64,000 bases of DNA from an uncultured Erysipelotrichaceae bacterium (lineage in GTDB: Bacteria > Bacillota_I > Bacilli_A > Erysipelotrichales > Erysipelotrichaceae): the NCBI GenBank assembly GCA_947385085.1, contig CANDJN010000001.1:73494-137493 (forward strand), read 5' to 3'. Below, piece after piece: positions 18,109 to 37,091 of the stretch (its first letter is position 1; each line of letters starts with the position of its first letter). The translations under genes and the position numbers were made by a program. The notes under the pieces were generated by a model that worked only from the letters and a program-made list of their open reading frames with translations, searched no databases and was not told the origin of the DNA.

Positions 18109-18621
18109 ATGGCCTATTTGAAGTCATTTCATTTTGTAAGGCAGGGAAATGATCATTATGATATGCTGGATCATGGTTTCTTGATGTATCGCGGTGAAAT
18201 GAATGCTATGAAAGGATCTCAAACACTGCGTTTGCGTAATTCTTATGATGATGTGATCATTACCATAACCTTGACGACAGGCAATGCCTTTTCCTTGTTT
18301 CATACGCGCAGGGACATGGCGATGAGTGTAGAAATGGAAGATATGAAAGGTCAGCTGATATGGGAGGGGAATCAACTACGATGGCAGCTTCCATCTGCAC
18401 AGTATACTTTTGCCGGAGTGGATCATTCTCCCTATGTGGATATGATTATGAGCCGCGATCAGGAAGTATTGGGATATTCGCAAGGAATGTCCTGCTGGTT
18501 GAAAAGCACGTCCTACAGTGCGGTATTTGCCATGCTGTGGATGTTCATGCAGCAGCGATATAAGCTTCATTTAATTGATGAAGGCACATTTGTAGAGCGA
18601 GTGAAAGAGGCGAAACGATGA
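18109..18621 (+). CDS. Hypothetical protein (170 aa)
   Basis: ORF coupled to the downstream HAD gene (ATGA overlap). No recognizable motifs. Confidence 0.45.
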   Translation: MAYLKSFHFVRQGNDHYDMLDHGFLMYRGEMNAMKGSQTLRLRNSYDDVIITITLTTGNAFSLFHTRRDMAMSVEMEDMKGQLIWEGNQLRWQLPSAQYTFAGVDHSPYVDMIMSRDQEVLGYSQGMSCWLKSTSYSAVFAMLWMFMQQRYKLHLIDEGTFVERVKEAKR

Positions 18622-19433: not shown

Positions 19434-19994
19434 ATGGCGATACAGGATTTTTTTATGCTGTGGCAGGATTTGGGACTCTTTCTGTATGCAGTACTCAAGG
19501 CTTTTTTACCGCTTCCGTCTTTGGAAGTGATTCTAGTTCCTTTGGTGATAGCGAATCCTACCCATTGGCTATGGTATTCGCTGGAAGGAGCACTCGGCAC
19601 TATGATTGGTGGGGGAATCGGCTATGCGATTGCCGATCGTCTTGGTAAAAAAGCATTGAAGAACATTGCGACGGCAGAAGATATTCGAAAGGGCGAGGAA
19701 CTCATGAATCGCTATGGCATATGGGCGGTATTAATTGGTGGAATTACACCGATACCTGATTTTTTATTGGCCTATCTAGCCGGTTTTGCGCATATGCGTT
19801 TTTTTCTGTTTGCACTATGTGATGCGGCTGCGCGACTTTTACGTTCGCTGTTGGTGTGCTACGGCATGATCAAATTAGGTGAAGTGGTCAATGTGGATGG
19901 ATTCGGTACGATCTTCTCATTAATCATCTTTATATGGCTATTGGTTCGCTGGGGGCGTTCTAAATGGCGTCTTCGTAAACAAAGTGATGAATAA
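19434..19994 (+). CDS. DedA/YqaA-family membrane protein
   Basis: Size, TM pattern and the GxxxG-rich central segment. Confidence 0.6.
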   Translation: MAIQDFFMLWQDLGLFLYAVLKAFLPLPSLEVILVPLVIANPTHWLWYSLEGALGTMIGGGIGYAIADRLGKKALKNIATAEDIRKGEELMNRYGIWAVLIGGITPIPDFLLAYLAGFAHMRFFLFALCDAAARLLRSLLVCYGMIKLGEVVNVDGFGTIFSLIIFIWLLVRWGRSKWRLRKQSDE

Positions 19995-20622
19995 AATAGG
20001 GGATGATGTGATCTTCATCCATGAGCTCCGGATGCCATTGTACTGCAATGATCGGTAACTTCTTATGGTAAAGTGCCTCAATGCGACCATCTTCAGCCAT
20101 CACAGCGGCGTGTAAAGAATCACCAAGCTGATTCACACATTGATGATGGTAACTGTTTACGACCGCTTTATGAGTGAGTAATTGGGTAAAAGGAGTCTTA
20201 TCTATCACAGTAACCGAATGTGTATGGGGCATTGTCTCGTGATCAGATTGTATAAAATGCTGGCAGTTGGTTCCACCAAAATATACATTGATGATTTGCA
20301 TACCACGACAAATCCCCAATACTGGCTTATGCTGTTTTACGAAAGCATCCAATAATGTAAAATCATAATGATCCACAGGACGCTGATAAAGTTTTGTCTG
20401 TTCATGAATTGCCTCATGAAAGTAAAAGGATGCAATGTCATAACCGCCACATAATAACAAGGCATCGAATTCCTCAGCTAAGTCGCTCACGGAATCCATG
20501 CGCAGCGGACAAAGGCAGTGCAGGGGATAGGGCTGTAATGAGCGCAGATAGCTTTCATTCACAAAATATTTCCATGCATGATCAATATATTCAATTCGAG
20601 GAGAGATCAAAATTTTTTTCAT
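19960..20622 (-). CDS. Class I glutamine amidotransferase-like protein (peptidase C26 / gamma-glutamyl-GABA hydrolase family)
   Basis: GICRGMQ catalytic Cys elbow; VQWHPE His motif. Confidence 0.8.
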   Translation of the reverse strand: MKKILISPRIEYIDHAWKYFVNESYLRSLQPYPLHCLCPLRMDSVSDLAEEFDALLLCGGYDIASFYFHEAIHEQTKLYQRPVDHYDFTLLDAFVKQHKPVLGICRGMQIINVYFGGTNCQHFIQSDHETMPHTHSVTVIDKTPFTQLLTHKAVVNSYHHQCVNQLGDSLHAAVMAEDGRIEALYHKKLPIIAVQWHPELMDEDHIIPYFIHHFVYEDAI

Positions 20623-20880
20623 AGCATACCTCCATCCATATACTATGCATCAAGCAATTTTATGAAATGGCAATATACCAGATCAATAGACTGAAGCCTT
20701 ATAACTGTATAAATGCTACATTTTAAAAAGAGATGGAAAATTATTGAATAATAATACTATTACTACATGTTTGTACTGCTAATCACTGCATTGATATATT
20801 ATTGAAAGACGAAGTGAATGACAGATAATGTAAAATCAGCATTATTTCTTGTAAAATGTTAAAATTTTTTAAATTAATTA

Positions 20881-20909
20881 TTGACATTAATGCACAAATA
20901 TTGTACTAT
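20881..20909 (+). promoter_or_regulatory. SigA-type promoter driving a small RNA
   Basis: TTGACA, 17 nt, TACTAT. No ORF downstream. Confidence 0.55.
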
Positions 20910-20915
20910 ATCTGC

Positions 20916-21056
20916 AGGTGGTAACACCTCTTGTGGCGCCCTCCTAGCCTATCTTTTCTTCCCCCACCCATATGGATAGGCCTAGTATCTCCCCCAAATT
21001 TAACCAGTGGGCGCCACTCGTCTATAAAGAAAAACATCGAGCAATCGATGTTTTTT
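20916..21056 (+). ncRNA. Candidate ~140-nt trans-acting sRNA with two CCCCC motifs (RsaE/RoxS-like architecture)
   Basis: Own promoter and terminator (ACATCGA-GCAA-TCGATGT plus T6). Outer helix UGGCGCCC/GGGCGCCA. Inner hairpin CUAGCCUAUC/GAUAGGCCUAG presents UUCCCCCACCC in the loop; a second UCCCCCAAA lies in a single-stranded stretch. Confidence 0.5.
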
Positions 21057-21113
21057 GTTCTATAGCAATATAAACATAATATATGATGTGAACCGGCAAT
21101 GAACTTTGATTGA

Positions 21114-22061
21114 TCATAAAGAAGCAGTGTAGCGCCGCCCTTGCCAAGTATTGCGGCGAATCATTTCTTTATCAATGGTATTGAGAACCACTTTCTTGTT
21201 GGCACTCCATCGCGGTGCAATTAAATCACACTGAGCACCATCACCGCTCAAACGCTGAATGATGATTTCAGGCGGCAATATTTCTAATTGCTGGATGACA
21301 ATATTGACATATTCATCTAAGGAAAGCAAGGGGAATGAGTTTTGTTCGTATTGTCTAGCCATTTCAGTGTTTTTCATGATATGAAGCATATGAATCTTTA
21401 TGGCATGAATCGGCAGGGTAGAAAGTACTTGGACACTTTCTATCATTTTTGCTTCATCTTCTGTAGGCAGTCCGTTGATCAGATGGACACAAATATGCAG
21501 CTTTGTTTTGCTCAATCGTTGAATACAATCATAAAATTGGTCAAAAGTATGACCACGATGAATGACCCTGGCGGTTTCATCATGGACGCTTTGTAAGCCC
21601 AATTCAATCCAGATATCCTTAGTTTGGGCGCATTGATGAAGATATGCAATTTTATCAGCTTCCAAGCAGTCTGAGCGTGTAGCGATACAGATGGCAGGAA
21701 TCTCATCCATTCCCATAAATGGTGTAAGCATTTGTTTGATAACGGGTAAAGGGGCATAGGTATTGGTAAATGCCTGAAAATATGGCATTGCCATTCCATT
21801 CCATTTCGCTTTCATGTGTTTCTTTCCTGCAAGAAACTGAGACATAAGATCATCGCTGCGCTGTCCGGCAAATTCACCGCTGCCTGCGGCTGTGCAGTAA
21901 GTACAACCGCCGTATCCGCAAGTGCCATCCCGATTGGGACAAGTCATTCCGGCATCAAGTGGAACTTTGAATACCTTACTGTGATAGGTATGACGCAGAT
22001 AGTAATTCCATGTATGATAGCGCTTATGATCATCACTGTAAGGAAAGGGATTATTTTTCAT
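21114..22061 (-). CDS. TIGR01212-family radical SAM protein (YhcC-like)
   Basis: Radical-SAM core present. The CxxxCxxC assignment is tentative (CPNRDGTCGYGGCTYC region). Confidence 0.7.
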   Translation of the reverse strand: MKNNPFPYSDDHKRYHTWNYYLRHTYHSKVFKVPLDAGMTCPNRDGTCGYGGCTYCTAAGSGEFAGQRSDDLMSQFLAGKKHMKAKWNGMAMPYFQAFTNTYAPLPVIKQMLTPFMGMDEIPAICIATRSDCLEADKIAYLHQCAQTKDIWIELGLQSVHDETARVIHRGHTFDQFYDCIQRLSKTKLHICVHLINGLPTEDEAKMIESVQVLSTLPIHAIKIHMLHIMKNTEMARQYEQNSFPLLSLDEYVNIVIQQLEILPPEIIIQRLSGDGAQCDLIAPRWSANKKVVLNTIDKEMIRRNTWQGRRYTASL

Positions 22062-34449: not shown

Positions 34450-34672
34450 CAGAAATAAAGGCTGAGAATTAGAGTAGTACGTAAAAGTCTGTATTCAGAG
34501 AGCAGTTGGCTGGTGAAAAACTGTTATTAGCTTTTAGGGAACTCACTAAGGAGCCGATAATGAGAAGTTATACGTATCCTTGCGTTAAAAGGATAAAGTG
34601 CATATATCTATTGATATATGAAGCAAGGTGGTACCGCGTTCATGACGTCCTCGCAAATGAGGACTTTTTTTT
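34450..34672 (+). promoter_or_regulatory. T-box riboswitch leader (Leu, candidate specifier CUC at 34542-34544)
   Basis: Conserved T-box AAGCAAGGUGGUACCGCG at 34621-34638; terminator GUCCUC/GAGGAC plus U8 at 34647-34672; AGAGAG and GGUGA stem-I motifs; GAACUCA specifier context. Confidence 0.8.
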
Positions 34673-34694: not shown

Positions 34695-37091
34695 ATGAGC
34701 TTTAATCACAAGGAAATAGAACAGAAATGGCAGAGATATTGGGAGGATCATAAGACCTTTGTATGTGATGTATGGGACTTTGACAAGCCGAAGTTTTATG
34801 CATTAGATATGTTCCCGTATCCCAGTGGACAGGGGTTGCATGTGGGACATCCGGAAGGATATACCGCAAGCGATATTGTTTGTCGAATGAAGAAAATGCA
34901 GGGATATAATGTTTTACATCCAATGGGATTTGATTCCTTTGGTTTACCGGCAGAACAATACGCGATTCAAACTGGAAATCATCCCGAAGGCTTTACTCTA
35001 AAAAACATCGCGACCTTTACTCGACAATTAAAAATGCTTGGCTTTGCCCTGGATTGGGACAAGCAGGTATCTACGTGTGATCCGCATTACTATAAATGGA
35101 CACAGTGGATATTTAAACAGCTGTATGAGGATGGCTTGGCAAAATACGTAAACATTCCGGTAAACTGGTGTGAGGAATTGGGAACAGTTCTTGCCAATGA
35201 TGAAATTGTGGACGGAAAAAGTGAACGCGGTGGTTATCCGGTTGTGCGTAAGAATATGATGCAGTGGGTGATTGATATACCGAAATATGCGGATCGCTTA
35301 TTAGAAGGCCTGGATGATATTGATTGGCCAAGTTCCACAAAGGAAATGCAGCGTAACTGGATTGGCAAATCGATGGGTGCTCACGTTGATTTTAAAGTGG
35401 CAGATCATGATGAATCCTTTACAGTGTTTACGACGCGTTGTGATACCTTGTTTGGGGCGACCTATTGCGTATTGGCTCCAGAACATGACCTCGTTCAAAA
35501 AATCGTAAGTGATGAACAAAAAAACGATGTGGATCACTATGTTTCGGCTTGTGCTCATAAGTCGGAATTAGAACGCACAGAGTTAAATAAAGAGAAAACA
35601 GGCGTTTTTACCGGCGCCTACGCGATCAATCCGGTTAACAATAAAAAAATACCAATTTGGATTTCTGATTATGTGCTGGCAAGCTATGGTACGGGGGCGA
35701 TTATGGCGGTACCGGCGCATGATGAACGTGATTATGCATTTGCTAAAAAATTTGACTTGGAAATTATTCCTGTCTTAGAGGGCGGCGATATTACCAAGGA
35801 AGCATGGACAGAGGATGGACTTCATATCAATTCCGAGTTTTTAGATGGTATGAATAAAGAGGATGCGATTGCGGCGATGATTGCCTTTCTGGAAACAAAT
35901 CACTGCGGTCGTGCACAGGTGAATTATCGCTTACGGGAATGGATTTTTGCACGTCAGCGTTATTGGGGGGAACCGATTCCGATTGTCCACATGGAAAATG
36001 GTGAAAGTGTAGCACTGAATGATGAAGAATTGCCATTAGTATTGCCGCCATTAGCCGATTACAGCCCCAGCAAAAGCGGTGCAAGTCCTCTGGAAAAAGC
36101 AACGGAATGGGTGAATGTGGAACGAAACGGACAAAAGGGCAAACGTGAAACGAGCACCATGCCGGGCAGTGCCGGATCCAGCTGGTATTTCTTGCGCTAT
36201 ATCGATCCGAAAAATGACGAGATGTTTGCGGATCCGAAGCTGTTAAAGCATTGGATGCCGGTGGATTTGTATATCGGTGGCAGTGAACACGCGGTCGGAC
36301 ATCTGCTTTATTCTCGCATGTGGAACCATTACTTATATGACAAAGGTTTGGTTCCGATCAAAGAACCGTTTCAGAAACTGTTCCATCAAGGTATGATCCT
36401 TGGTGAGAACAATGAAAAAATGTCAAAATCACGCGGCAACGTTGTCAATCCCGATGATATTGTGAAGCAATATGGCGCTGATACCCTGCGGCTTTATGAG
36501 ATGTTTATGGGACCGTTAGAGGCCAGCAAGCCATGGGCGGACAGCGGTGTCGAAGCCAGCCGCAAGTGGCTGGATCGTGTATGGCGTTTGATGATGGAAA
36601 GTGATAAATTAAGCGATGAAAACGATCATCAGTTAGATTACAGTTATCATTTTACCGTAAAAAAGGTAACGGAGGACTTCGCATCCTTAAATATGAATAC
36701 GGCTATTTCTCAAATGATGATTTTCATCAATGACTGTTATAAATGCGAACATGTATATCGTCCCTATGCTTTGGATTTTATTAAAATGCTCTCCTGTGTC
36801 GCTCCGCATGTTTGCGAGGAAATGTACACAACATTGACGGGGAAGGAATGCATTGCCAATGAAGCATGGCCGATCTATGATGAAAATCAGCTGAAAAAGA
36901 CTGAAATGGAAGTCATTGCTCAGGTAAACGGCAAGCTGCGCGGACGCTTTACGGTATCGGTAGATGCCGATGAGGACGAGATTCGTCAAGCGGCGATGGA
37001 TCTGCCAAATGTAAAAGCACAGATTGAAGGTAAAACTGTGCGCAAAATCATTGTGGTTAAAGGCAAGGTAGTGAATATTGTAGCGAACTAA
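34695..37091 (+). CDS. leuS: Leucine--tRNA ligase
   Basis: HVGH (HIGH) and KMSKS motifs, CP1 editing domain, 798 aa. Confidence 0.97.

Follow-up and report, generated by a model that had tools for sequence, protein, structure and literature searches.

A new family of predicted small RNAs with two C-rich single-stranded motifs in Erysipelotrichaceae

C-rich small RNAs of Firmicutes and the present locus

LhrC of Listeria (RF00616) and RsaA, RsaC, RsaG, RsaH and other small RNAs (sRNAs) of S. aureus act independently of Hfq, carry UCCC motifs in loops or linkers and pair with Shine–Dalgarno (SD) sequences. The cia-dependent csRNAs of streptococci are short, end in a rho-independent terminator and leave an anti-SD-like pyrimidine stretch unpaired between their stem-loops. 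RsaE/RoxS of Bacillales blocks translation initiation on its targets and/or brings about their cleavage by RNase III, and its promoter carries a Rex operator and depends on ResD/SrrA. The C-rich motifs of RsaE are duplicated, unpaired, long and highly conserved, taking the form of two copies of a 10-nt repeat that contains CCCCUU and is complementary to AAGGGG, and the hosts of RsaE/RoxS are Staphylococcaceae and Bacillaceae (PMC6158497). A literature search in a limited library yielded no description of C-rich sRNAs, or of any regulatory RNA, in Erysipelotrichaceae. Matches to the motif strings of the RNA described below were confined to unrelated primer sequences of eukaryotic or viral origin, and neither motif nor Dielma occurred in the 200 of 408 files of the Fremin and Bhatt 2021 text supplements that were covered.

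The locus analysed here lies at 20914–21056 on the + strand of a 64-kb stretch of DNA (the window) and is, as judged by comparative sequence analysis, a real stand-alone non-coding RNA gene of ~140 nt present in part of the Erysipelotrichaceae. The RNA family is absent from Rfam 15 and previously uncatalogued: no relevant Rfam match was obtained in the window at the gathering threshold, in 20600–21150 at E ≤ 10 (RsaE model included) or at E ≤ 5 in the loci with three divergent homologues. Since no Rfam 15 match was found, the RNA is not regarded as a member of RsaE/RoxS, and identity with RsaE, LhrC, csRNA or any riboswitch was rejected for want of a relevant match at these permissive E-values.

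The RNA resembles RsaE/RoxS (RF01820) in design only, with no evidence of homology. Both are stand-alone genes of ~100–140 nt with their own promoter and intrinsic terminator, both carry two related C-rich motifs, of which a hairpin loop holds one and an unpaired stretch the other (the case in the MFE folds of all 11 homologues of the new RNA), and in both these motifs are conserved above the rest of the molecule, with a sequence conservation unusually high for an sRNA. The motifs here, however, are CUUCCCCCACCC and CUCCCCCAAA, with no CCCCUU anywhere in the RNA, and their predicted partners are GGGUGGGGGAAG and UUUGGGGGAG instead of AAGGGG. The outer helix (P1) encloses the inner hairpin (P2), whereas the hairpins of RsaE/RoxS are serial; the new RNA has an additional 5′ GNRA hairpin; and its hosts are Erysipelotrichaceae, strict anaerobes (Dielma fastidiosa, Massilicoli timonensis and MAG lineages). 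No site similar to TTGTGAA-N4-TTCACAA (a consensus from general knowledge; up to 3 mismatches allowed) was found within 5 kb of the promoter. The initial annotation had described the RNA as a candidate RsaE/RoxS-like regulator whose primary sequence has no obvious match to RsaE/RoxS, and on these grounds (no RF01820 match, no CCCCUU, nested helices, another host family, no Rex-box) the description fails as a statement of membership.

By general description, the new RNA shares with LhrC and the other UCCC-motif sRNAs the exposure of C-rich motifs on a Firmicute sRNA, but it has no Rfam match, a different fold and a single copy per locus, and its C-runs are longer (C5) and embedded in invariant segments of 13–21 nt. 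It likewise shares with the csRNAs, by general description, an unpaired anti-SD-like pyrimidine stretch and a rho-independent terminator, but differs in lacking an Rfam match, in architecture and in showing no anti-AUG element. The CiaR-type repeat TTTAAG-N5-TTTAAG was not noticed upstream when the sequences were read by eye.

Homologues, promoter, fold and terminator

Eleven homologues were collected, seven through gene neighbourhood and four through a pattern demanding both C-rich motifs; in those four the invariance of the motifs is by construction, because the search pattern required them. Eight other Erysipelotrichaceae lineages supplied the homologues, among them Dielma fastidiosa (L043) and Massilicoli timonensis (L038), with a bird-gut metagenome as one further source; their scores with the covariance model were 40 to 173 bits. 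Every homologue folded alone gave the same layout, and the common architecture consists of promoter, 5′ GNRA hairpin (not in Massilicoli), P1, P2 and terminator. Homologues were present where the adjacent radical-SAM protein is only 60–77% identical, and in such loci the RNA core is ~100% identical and the surrounding intergenic DNA unalignable. Among relatives examined by synteny, nhmmer and the covariance model detected no homologue in Ca. Merdibacter, Erysipelothrix and Clostridia (L001–L009). L025/L026, whose radical-SAM identity of 82% makes it the nearest relative sampled, likewise had none, and neither L063 nor L064 showed one in the ±10 kb covered. In some close relatives without the RNA, the radical-SAM and amidotransferase genes abut.

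A sigma-A type promoter was located at 20881–20909 (+), with the -35 element TTGACA at 20881–20886, a 17-nt spacer and the -10 element TACTAT at 20904–20909. Its score of 10/12 was the joint top in a 2.2-kb scan, and an A/T-rich stretch lies immediately 5′ of it. All 11 homologues have TTGACA and a TAnnAT-type -10 element at a spacing of 17–18 nt, while spacer and upstream sequence are divergent. On this evidence the sRNA promoter looks strong and unregulated or constitutive. The predicted transcript of ~140 nt (20914–21056, +) was delimited at its 5′ end from the position of the -10 element and at its 3′ end from the U-tract, and is indicated by covariance model, fold and conservation. The covariance model matched the window at 20914–21062 with 166 bits, and the window contains a single copy of the sRNA. 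Contigs from within the species showed zero substitutions from promoter to terminator, all substitutions falling at positions 1–221 of the intergenic region.

The RNA 20917–21056 (+) was folded at −48.7 kcal/mol, against a shuffle mean of −26.4 (z = −7.74), and 0/200 shuffles were as stable. The folds of the window and its homologues place at 20916–20929 (+) a 5′ hairpin, H0 (AGGUG-GUAA-CACCU), of 5 bp with a GNRA tetraloop, which in 8 of the 11 folded homologues reads GUAA, GUGA, GAGA or GCAA; H0 has a 3-nt loop in L032 and L046 and is missing from Massilicoli (L038). Its upper pairs covary (U-A to C-G, G-C to A-U). P1 is formed by the 5′ arm GUGGCGCCC (20933–20941, +) and the 3′ arm GGGCGCCAC (21009–21017, +), and is supported by both the fold and a sequence-only alignment, in which four of its nine pairs show compensatory changes inside the main clade. 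The pair 20941/21009 is C-G in the window, U-G in L028 and L029 and U-A in L031, and in L065, Dielma and Massilicoli the sequence of P1 is wholly different with complementarity kept. Within P1, the 5′ arm CUAGCCUAUC of P2 (20944–20953, +) pairs with the 3′ arm GAUAGGCCUAG (20975–20985, +) with one bulged C, a pairing that fold and covariation both indicate, with double changes between lineages in 6/10 pairs.

The fold is predicted to display two single strands, UCUUCCCCCACCC in the 21-nt apical loop of P2 (20954–20974, +), which contains C-rich motif 1 at 20958–20969, and UCUCCCCCAAA in the 3′ internal loop (20986–21008, +), which is unpaired in all folds and contains motif 2 at 20989–20998. 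The motifs are mutually related, with the shared form YCUYCCCCCA. They are the most strongly conserved part of the RNA, and these two single-stranded stretches are its only invariant segments. The P2 loop has a length of ~20 nt across homologues, is single-stranded in the MFE fold of each, and is entirely identical in 6/7 of those derived from the neighbourhood. L029 and L033 are without one G at the loop–stem junction (G20974 or G20975); the L029 fold retains the loop sequence, and the L033 fold shortens the loop by 1 nt. In the internal loop, UAUCUCCCCCAAA is invariant among the neighbourhood-derived homologues, and the 3′ part is variable in length and sequence. TYCCCCCA occurs in the window at chance level (3 against 2.97 expected); the case for the RNA rests on fold and conservation and not on C-runs.

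The intrinsic terminator occupies 21030–21056 (+), with a stem at 21035–21040/21045–21050, a GCAA loop and a U6 tract at 21051–21056; in the fold the core stem is extended by A-U pairs to a 12-bp hairpin, followed by U6. It was absent from the output of a simple terminator scan and was recognised from the fold and the homologues, every one of which has a hairpin and U-tract at the equivalent place. In the homologue alignment all eight stem pairs show double changes, and 99% of cells are paired. The sequence linking P1 to the terminator shows no conservation. With an A-run 5′ of the window hairpin, the terminator may serve the convergent radical-SAM gene as well; L028, among other homologues, has no A-run and retains the U-tract on the sRNA strand.

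In an alignment of 12 sequences, 95.1% of cells were paired, compared with 73.5% after shuffling and 32–43% in slid controls, double changes were seen in 25 of 31 pairs, and the covariation score was 0.685 against 0.244 for the shuffled alignment. The covariance model puts the P1 3′ arm of Dielma-type sequences in the wrong columns, so the P1 pairing figures of this alignment are understated. P1 and the terminator still covary in the sequence-only alignment, and RNAalifold on a MAFFT alignment recovers H0, P2 and the terminator. Between lineages the helix sequences are completely different and still complementary, and the C-rich loops are unchanged.

The predicted strand of the RNA is fixed as + by the conserved promoter, the U-tract and the G-U/U-G pairs; read on the opposite strand, the U-G wobbles become A-C mismatches and the fold is weaker (z = −5.1). 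An opposite-strand leader of the amidotransferase gene was rejected on these same points. Mechanical ORFs of 43–44 aa are present on both strands of the segment, none is conserved among the homologues, in which frames are shifted by 1-nt indels, and L029 and L034 have no ORF of at least 25 aa. A small-protein reading was rejected, as no reading frame is conserved.

The features described in the initial annotation were all recovered at its coordinates: the near-consensus SigA promoter (TTGACA-17-TACTAT), the clean intrinsic terminator (though the simple scan missed it), the outer helix enclosing a hairpin with a C-rich loop and the second, unpaired C-rich motif. The proposed self-contained transcription unit of ~140 nt is likewise predicted here, with promoter, structure and terminator conserved between genera and with compensatory changes in the comparative alignment. 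Its statement that the segment has no ORF is wrong literally and right in that none is conserved.

Proposed function and alternative readings

By analogy with the described systems, the most likely role of the RNA is in trans, through anti-SD pairing. The full reading, of a stand-alone structured sRNA gene of an uncatalogued family that acts in trans by C-rich seed pairing, is held with roughly even confidence. The sigma-A type promoter drives a predicted RNA beginning with the short GNRA-capped hairpin, which would probably protect it from 5′ exonuclease. P1 is a clamp helix holding P2, such that the fold presents both C-rich stretches as single strands. These stretches would act as seeds for G-rich sequences, of the GGGUGGGGGAAG and UUUGGGGGAGA form, at or near the SD sites of targets, with target sites expected to be GGGUGGGGG-like or UGGGGGAG-like at the RBS, and pairing would block translation initiation and/or expose the target to RNase III cleavage, as for RsaE/RoxS. 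The seed idea was adopted because the two invariant single-stranded C-rich stretches parallel the duplicated motifs of RsaE (PMC6158497). If SD pairing is true, the C-rich seed design of aerobic Bacillales is also at work, via an unrelated RNA, in gut Firmicutes that are strict anaerobes.

The RNA could alternatively bind a protein, an RNP or the ribosome, as a sequestering or scaffold RNA that titrates or guides its partner (e.g. a KH- or S1-type protein), a reading that we consider unlikely. Pairing seeds are typically 6–10 nt, and the conserved stretch here is unusually long by comparison, the whole 21-nt loop and a 13-nt segment of the internal loop being invariant between genera in which all helices have been replaced. 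RsaE-type seeds, however, are likewise long and highly conserved (PMC6158497). One scaffold bearing two related motifs would suit a binder, as would a promoter that is apparently strong and unregulated and the lack of an evident mRNA target in the window scan. GNRA hairpins are common in RNAs with tertiary structure, and the tetraloop hairpin kept in 8/11 homologues is consistent with binding, but Massilicoli is without it. No candidate protein gene is consistently linked to the RNA: the adjoining genes (amidotransferase, radical SAM, NUDIX) encode enzymes, and of these the amidotransferase gene alone is next to it in nearly all sampled lineages. The lack of the RNA in the close relatives L025, L063 and L064 also runs contrary to a housekeeping role. 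A broader version is equally doubtful, namely an unconventional class of structured ncRNA whose C-rich loops, set on the P1 clamp beside the GNRA hairpin, would bind protein, the ribosome or G-rich RNA, or would sense a signal that gates read-through into the NUDIX gene, the window carrying the free-standing form. Protein binding or NUDIX gating, if true, would amount to a new class of riboregulator.

The gene order bears on whether the RNA is a cis leader that would control a downstream NUDIX gene through the terminator, either in the manner of a riboswitch or as an attenuator under protein or RNA control, the window copy being an orphan remnant or a leader-derived sRNA left when the NUDIX gene was lost or moved. 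We regard this as improbable, a little more so than protein binding. The divergent neighbour in the window is a Peptidase_C26/class-I glutamine amidotransferase gene (PuuD-like by Pfam; 19960–20622, −), and the same holds in L029, L034, L043 (Dielma), L038 (Massilicoli), L046 and L065. On the other side a TIGR01212-type radical SAM gene is convergent (21114–22061, −), its stop codon 57 nt past the sRNA terminator; it adjoins the sRNA in the window clade (L027–L032) and not in Dielma or Massilicoli. A co-oriented NUDIX gene (PF00293) follows the RNA in three lineages, Dielma, L034 and Massilicoli, and in Massilicoli its SD (AAGGAG) and ATG come so soon (ATG 19 nt after the terminator U-tract) that no space is left for a separate NUDIX promoter. 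A structured conserved domain followed by a terminator is also attenuator-like, and a leader or read-through role may apply where NUDIX follows. In Dielma, however, the NUDIX start lies ~250 nt beyond the terminator, and a co-oriented downstream gene is not consistent among lineages, being confined to these three. A convergent downstream gene and the lack of any NUDIX homologue nearby mark the window, L027–L032 and L065, yet RNA conservation there is equally strict. Because that gene is convergent, the RNA of the window clade is not the leader of its neighbour, so the possibility of a cis element of an adjoining gene, raised by the initial annotation, does not apply there. Moreover, no antiterminator pairing between P1 and the terminator was seen in any lineage by inspection of sequences and MFE folds, the linker between them is unconserved and no Rfam riboswitch or leader matched.

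That the locus is a conserved DNA element (a protein-binding palindrome, a bidirectional terminator region or a mobile insertion) is very improbable, since the placement of the terminator hairpin between an A-run and a T-run, 57 nt beyond the convergent radical-SAM stop, and the absence of the whole element from some close relatives with abutting genes are outweighed by compensatory changes that keep pairing in four helices, U-G wobbles sensible only as + strand RNA and a consensus promoter kept at a fixed distance. A repeat or mobile element was rejected: the window has one copy, there was no match in viral contigs or in phage or plasmid collections, and no terminal repeats were found.

Host range and target search

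Erysipelotrichaceae are common members of the human and animal gut, where this RNA fills a gap in regulatory RNAs. Its comparative support is unusually clean: the helices covary in full, the loops are invariant, and promoter and terminator are both conserved. Its presence in the cultured species Dielma fastidiosa and Massilicoli timonensis makes direct testing possible, and the alignment and model could serve as the start of an Rfam family and help to annotate gut MAGs better.

Both motifs were compared by RNAduplex with the initiation regions of 67 window ORFs, and the best energy, −21.9 kcal/mol, did not surpass that of shuffled motifs (mean best −23.5). G-rich initiation regions were no commoner in RNA-carrying loci, and complements of the motifs were not clearly enriched within the window. 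The amidotransferase initiation regions of six lineages have ordinary SD sequences with chance-level matches to the motifs. As to complements in stable RNAs, the window contains no tRNA, and its T-box sequence was a poor match. These negative scans carry little weight because they cover only ~64 kb of genome. The 12/14 match noted at 19605–19618 in the neighbouring DedA gene, where the coding sequence specifies Gly-Gly-Gly, is probably due to chance.

Promoter, terminator and predicted fold

The sRNA, a predicted transcript of about 140 nt (20914–21056, + strand), lies in a 491-nt intergenic region between a divergent Peptidase_C26/class-I amidotransferase gene (19960–20622, −) and a convergent TIGR01212-type radical SAM gene (21114–22061, −); no + strand gene follows it. 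A promoter-like site, consisting of TTGACA (−35, 20881–20886, +) and TACTAT (−10, 20904–20909, +) separated by 17 nt, was present as initially annotated, scored 10/12 and ranked joint first in a 2.2-kb scan. The RNA (20917–21056, +) folded at −48.7 kcal/mol, whereas dinucleotide-shuffled sequences averaged −26.4 ± 2.9 (z = −7.74); the reverse-strand fold was weaker (z = −5.1).

The predicted fold, on the + strand throughout, begins with a 5′ hairpin (H0, AGGUG-GUAA-CACCU, 20916–20929), followed by an outer helix (P1) in which GUGGCGCCC (20933–20941) pairs with GGGCGCCAC (21009–21017), and an inner hairpin (P2, 20944–20953 with 20975–20985). Motif 1, CUUCCCCCACCC (20958–20969), is contained in the 21-nt P2 loop and motif 2, CUCCCCCAAA (20989–20998), in a 23-nt 3′ internal loop. 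The initially described arrangement of an outer helix around a hairpin, with a C-rich loop and a second C-rich unpaired stretch, was fully recovered, as was the terminator, a 12-bp hairpin followed by U6 (21030–21056). The terminal hairpin was missing from the output of a simple terminator scan and is supported by the fold and comparative data. Short C-runs in the window occur at chance level, and the case for the sRNA is independent of their count.

Occurrence and structure in relatives

In same-species contigs with identical flanking proteins, the intergenic regions were 98.5–100% identical; all substitutions fell in the first 221 nt, and from promoter to terminator T-run length alone varied. 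One such contig (L020) has an extra called 70-aa gene (664–876, +) at the radical-SAM 3′ end, which looks like a frameshift or assembly variant of that strain. Loci of radical-SAM homologues of falling identity to the window protein were compared as a graded series, and the sRNA was present in L027 (77%), L028 (76%), L029 (71%), L031 (66%), L032 (65%), L033 (64%) and L065 (60%). It was absent from the equivalent spacer of L025/L026 despite 82% identity, from within ±10 kb in L063 and L064 (a Longicatena MAG), and from the nearest species-representative genome in the distant-relative scan (58%). Across the series, P2 and both loops were near-constant (within 56 nt, 0–3 substitutions and no deletion longer than 1 nt), P1 diverged to varying degrees, by changes in single pairs at the least and by replacement of the whole helix in L065, and the surrounding intergenic DNA was unalignable.

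A metagenome scan for the two-motif pattern yielded L046 and more distant forms, assigned by exact protein look-up to Dielma fastidiosa (L037, L043, L045, L054) and Massilicoli timonensis (L038, L056), together with L034 from a bird-gut sample. The remaining 21 pattern matches were rejected as C-rich chance, with no covariance-model match in the eight searched. Pattern-found homologues carry both motifs by construction, which does not apply to the seven found by neighbourhood; in these seven, motif 1 and UAUCUCCCCCAAA of motif 2 were invariant. In all homologues the promoter (TTGACA, 17–18-nt spacer, TAnnAT-type −10) keeps a constant distance to the first hairpin, and a U-tract lies 3′ of the last one.

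With eight main-clade sequences as input, a covariance model gave scores of 166 bits for the window, 90 for L065, 67 for Dielma, 60 for L034 and 40 for Massilicoli. The comparison for compensatory changes that the initial annotation had proposed was made on a 12-sequence alignment, in which 95.1% of cells held a standard pair (73.5% with 3′ partners shuffled, 32–43% with partners slid by 1–3 columns), the covariation score was 0.685 (0.244 and 0.08–0.14, respectively), and both sides had changed in 25 of 31 pairs. As this alignment was fitted to the model, counts were repeated on a MAFFT-only main-clade alignment, giving compensatory change in 4/9 P1 pairs and 3/8 terminator pairs, and 96.8% paired cells versus 33–44% when slid. 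P1 support in the 12-sequence alignment is underestimated because the model puts the P1 3′ arm of Dielma-type sequences in the wrong columns. RNAalifold recovered H0, P2 and the terminator unguided from a MAFFT alignment of all lineages, and each homologue folded singly gave the same layout.

Helices were swapped wholesale between lineages: P1 is GUGGCGCCC/GGGCGCCAC in the window, GGGACACCC/GGGUGUCAC in L046, GUGGAAGAAUUUCA/UGAAAUCUUCCAC in L065, CAUCUUAAC/GUUAAGAUG in Dielma and GACAUUGAUUUGA/UCAAAUCAAUGUC in Massilicoli, and P2 is CUAGCCUAUC/GAUAGGCCUAG in the window, CUAACCUAUC/GAUAGGUUAG in L065, CUAACUUAC/GUAAGUUAG in Dielma and AUUCCC/GGGAAU in Massilicoli. The 5′ hairpin carried a GNRA tetraloop (GUAA, GUGA, GAGA or GCAA) in 8 of 11 folded homologues; its loop was 3 nt in L032 and L046, and Massilicoli had no 5′ hairpin. 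The sRNA forms a transcription unit that is conserved, structured and non-coding, and it is almost certainly a genuine RNA gene. Selection is strongest on its two single-stranded C-rich segments, whose sequences resemble one another (YCUYCCCCCA).

Family assignment and mode of action

Rfam 15 gave no match for the sRNA at the gathering threshold, terminator-like noise only at E ≤ 10 (20600–21150), and nothing at E ≤ 5 in loci with three divergent homologues. Because of these negatives at all thresholds, membership of the initially suggested RsaE/RoxS class, of LhrC or csRNA, or of a catalogued riboswitch or leader family was ruled out. The sole Rfam match in the window was an unrelated full-length T-box leader (34455–34655, +; RF00230, 126.6 bits, E = 1e-27) upstream of an ORF at 34695–37091. 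RsaE has a CCCCUU motif in a loop and a second one between hairpins, and either motif alone represses targets with AAGGGG (PMC6158497). In design, the sRNA is similar to RsaE/RoxS and to other C-rich sRNAs of Firmicutes, but it differs from RsaE/RoxS in model score, motif sequence, helix topology, promoter operator and host range. No description was found in the searchable literature, and we rate it as a new family of an already known kind of regulator. New sRNA families are not rare; support for this one is unusually good, and its gut clade is unstudied and has cultured members.

By analogy, the C-rich segments may act as seeds pairing with G-rich RNA, most plausibly Shine–Dalgarno (SD) regions, a mechanism on which our judgement is evenly balanced. 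Duplex energies of the motifs against 67 window initiation regions were no better than for shuffled motifs, the amidotransferase initiation regions were ordinary, and G-rich initiation regions were not enriched in carrier loci. Motif 1 complements had seven non-self matches in the window (3.4 expected), not a clear enrichment, and motif 2 complements fewer than expected. These negatives carry little weight because they cover only 64 kb of genome. Within the DedA/VTT gene (19434–19994), ATTGGTGGGGGAAT (19605–19618, +) matches the motif 1 complement at 12/14 positions, probably by chance; it encodes a Gly-Gly-Gly stretch, and nucleotide conservation in orthologues is unlikely. A 170-aa ORF without a Pfam family (18109–18621, +), between the MFS and HAD-IIA genes and syntenic in several Erysipelotrichaceae loci (L010, L063, L065), has a G-rich initiation region, GGAAGGGGAUG, with a predicted sRNA duplex of −19.1 kcal/mol, within the shuffled range.

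A rival reading, a protein- or ribosome-binding RNA, is favoured by the fully invariant long loops and by the GNRA hairpin. Taken with linkage to a NUDIX hydrolase gene (PF00293), these features mean that the RNA may be of a non-standard kind. This gene lies downstream of and co-oriented with the sRNA in Massilicoli (L038:1–211, −), L034 (3278–3805, +) and Dielma (L043:8483–8986, −), starting 19, about 45 and about 250 nt past the terminator, respectively. A leader gating the NUDIX gene is plausible for Massilicoli, where its SD, AAGGAG, immediately follows the sRNA U-tract, but cannot account for the window clade (window and L027–L032); no NUDIX homologue was found in the window or main-clade loci. 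Both strands have mechanical ORFs of 43–44 aa that overlap the region, so the initial description of it as ORF-free holds only in that none is conserved across homologues; a small protein is excluded by 1-nt indels among homologues and by the lack of any ORF of ≥25 aa in L029 and L034. A DNA-level element is excluded by the covariation and by U-G/G-U pairs in P1, P2 and the terminator, which on the opposite strand would give A-C mismatches.

Gene neighbourhood

The divergent amidotransferase gene, after which come DedA/VTT, HAD-IIA and MFS genes, adjoins the sRNA in the window, L029, L034, L046, L065, Dielma and Massilicoli; the convergent radical-SAM gene is a neighbour of the sRNA in the window clade only. 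In relatives without the sRNA (L063:10001–11670, L064:10001–11638), the radical-SAM and amidotransferase genes abut co-directionally with a 48–62-nt gap; they are co-directional in the window clade too (window 19960–22061), with the 491-nt spacer and oppositely oriented sRNA between them. This comparison suggests that insertion or rearrangement took place at the sRNA locus. A box, GACAGATAATGTAAAA (20818–20838, +), about 45–60 nt upstream of the −35, was not seen in more distant homologues and is kept in the window, L027 and L032 even though the gene upstream encodes an amidotransferase in the window but is Rce1-like in L027. The box might represent a site at which a regulator acts on the sRNA promoter, or else a relic.
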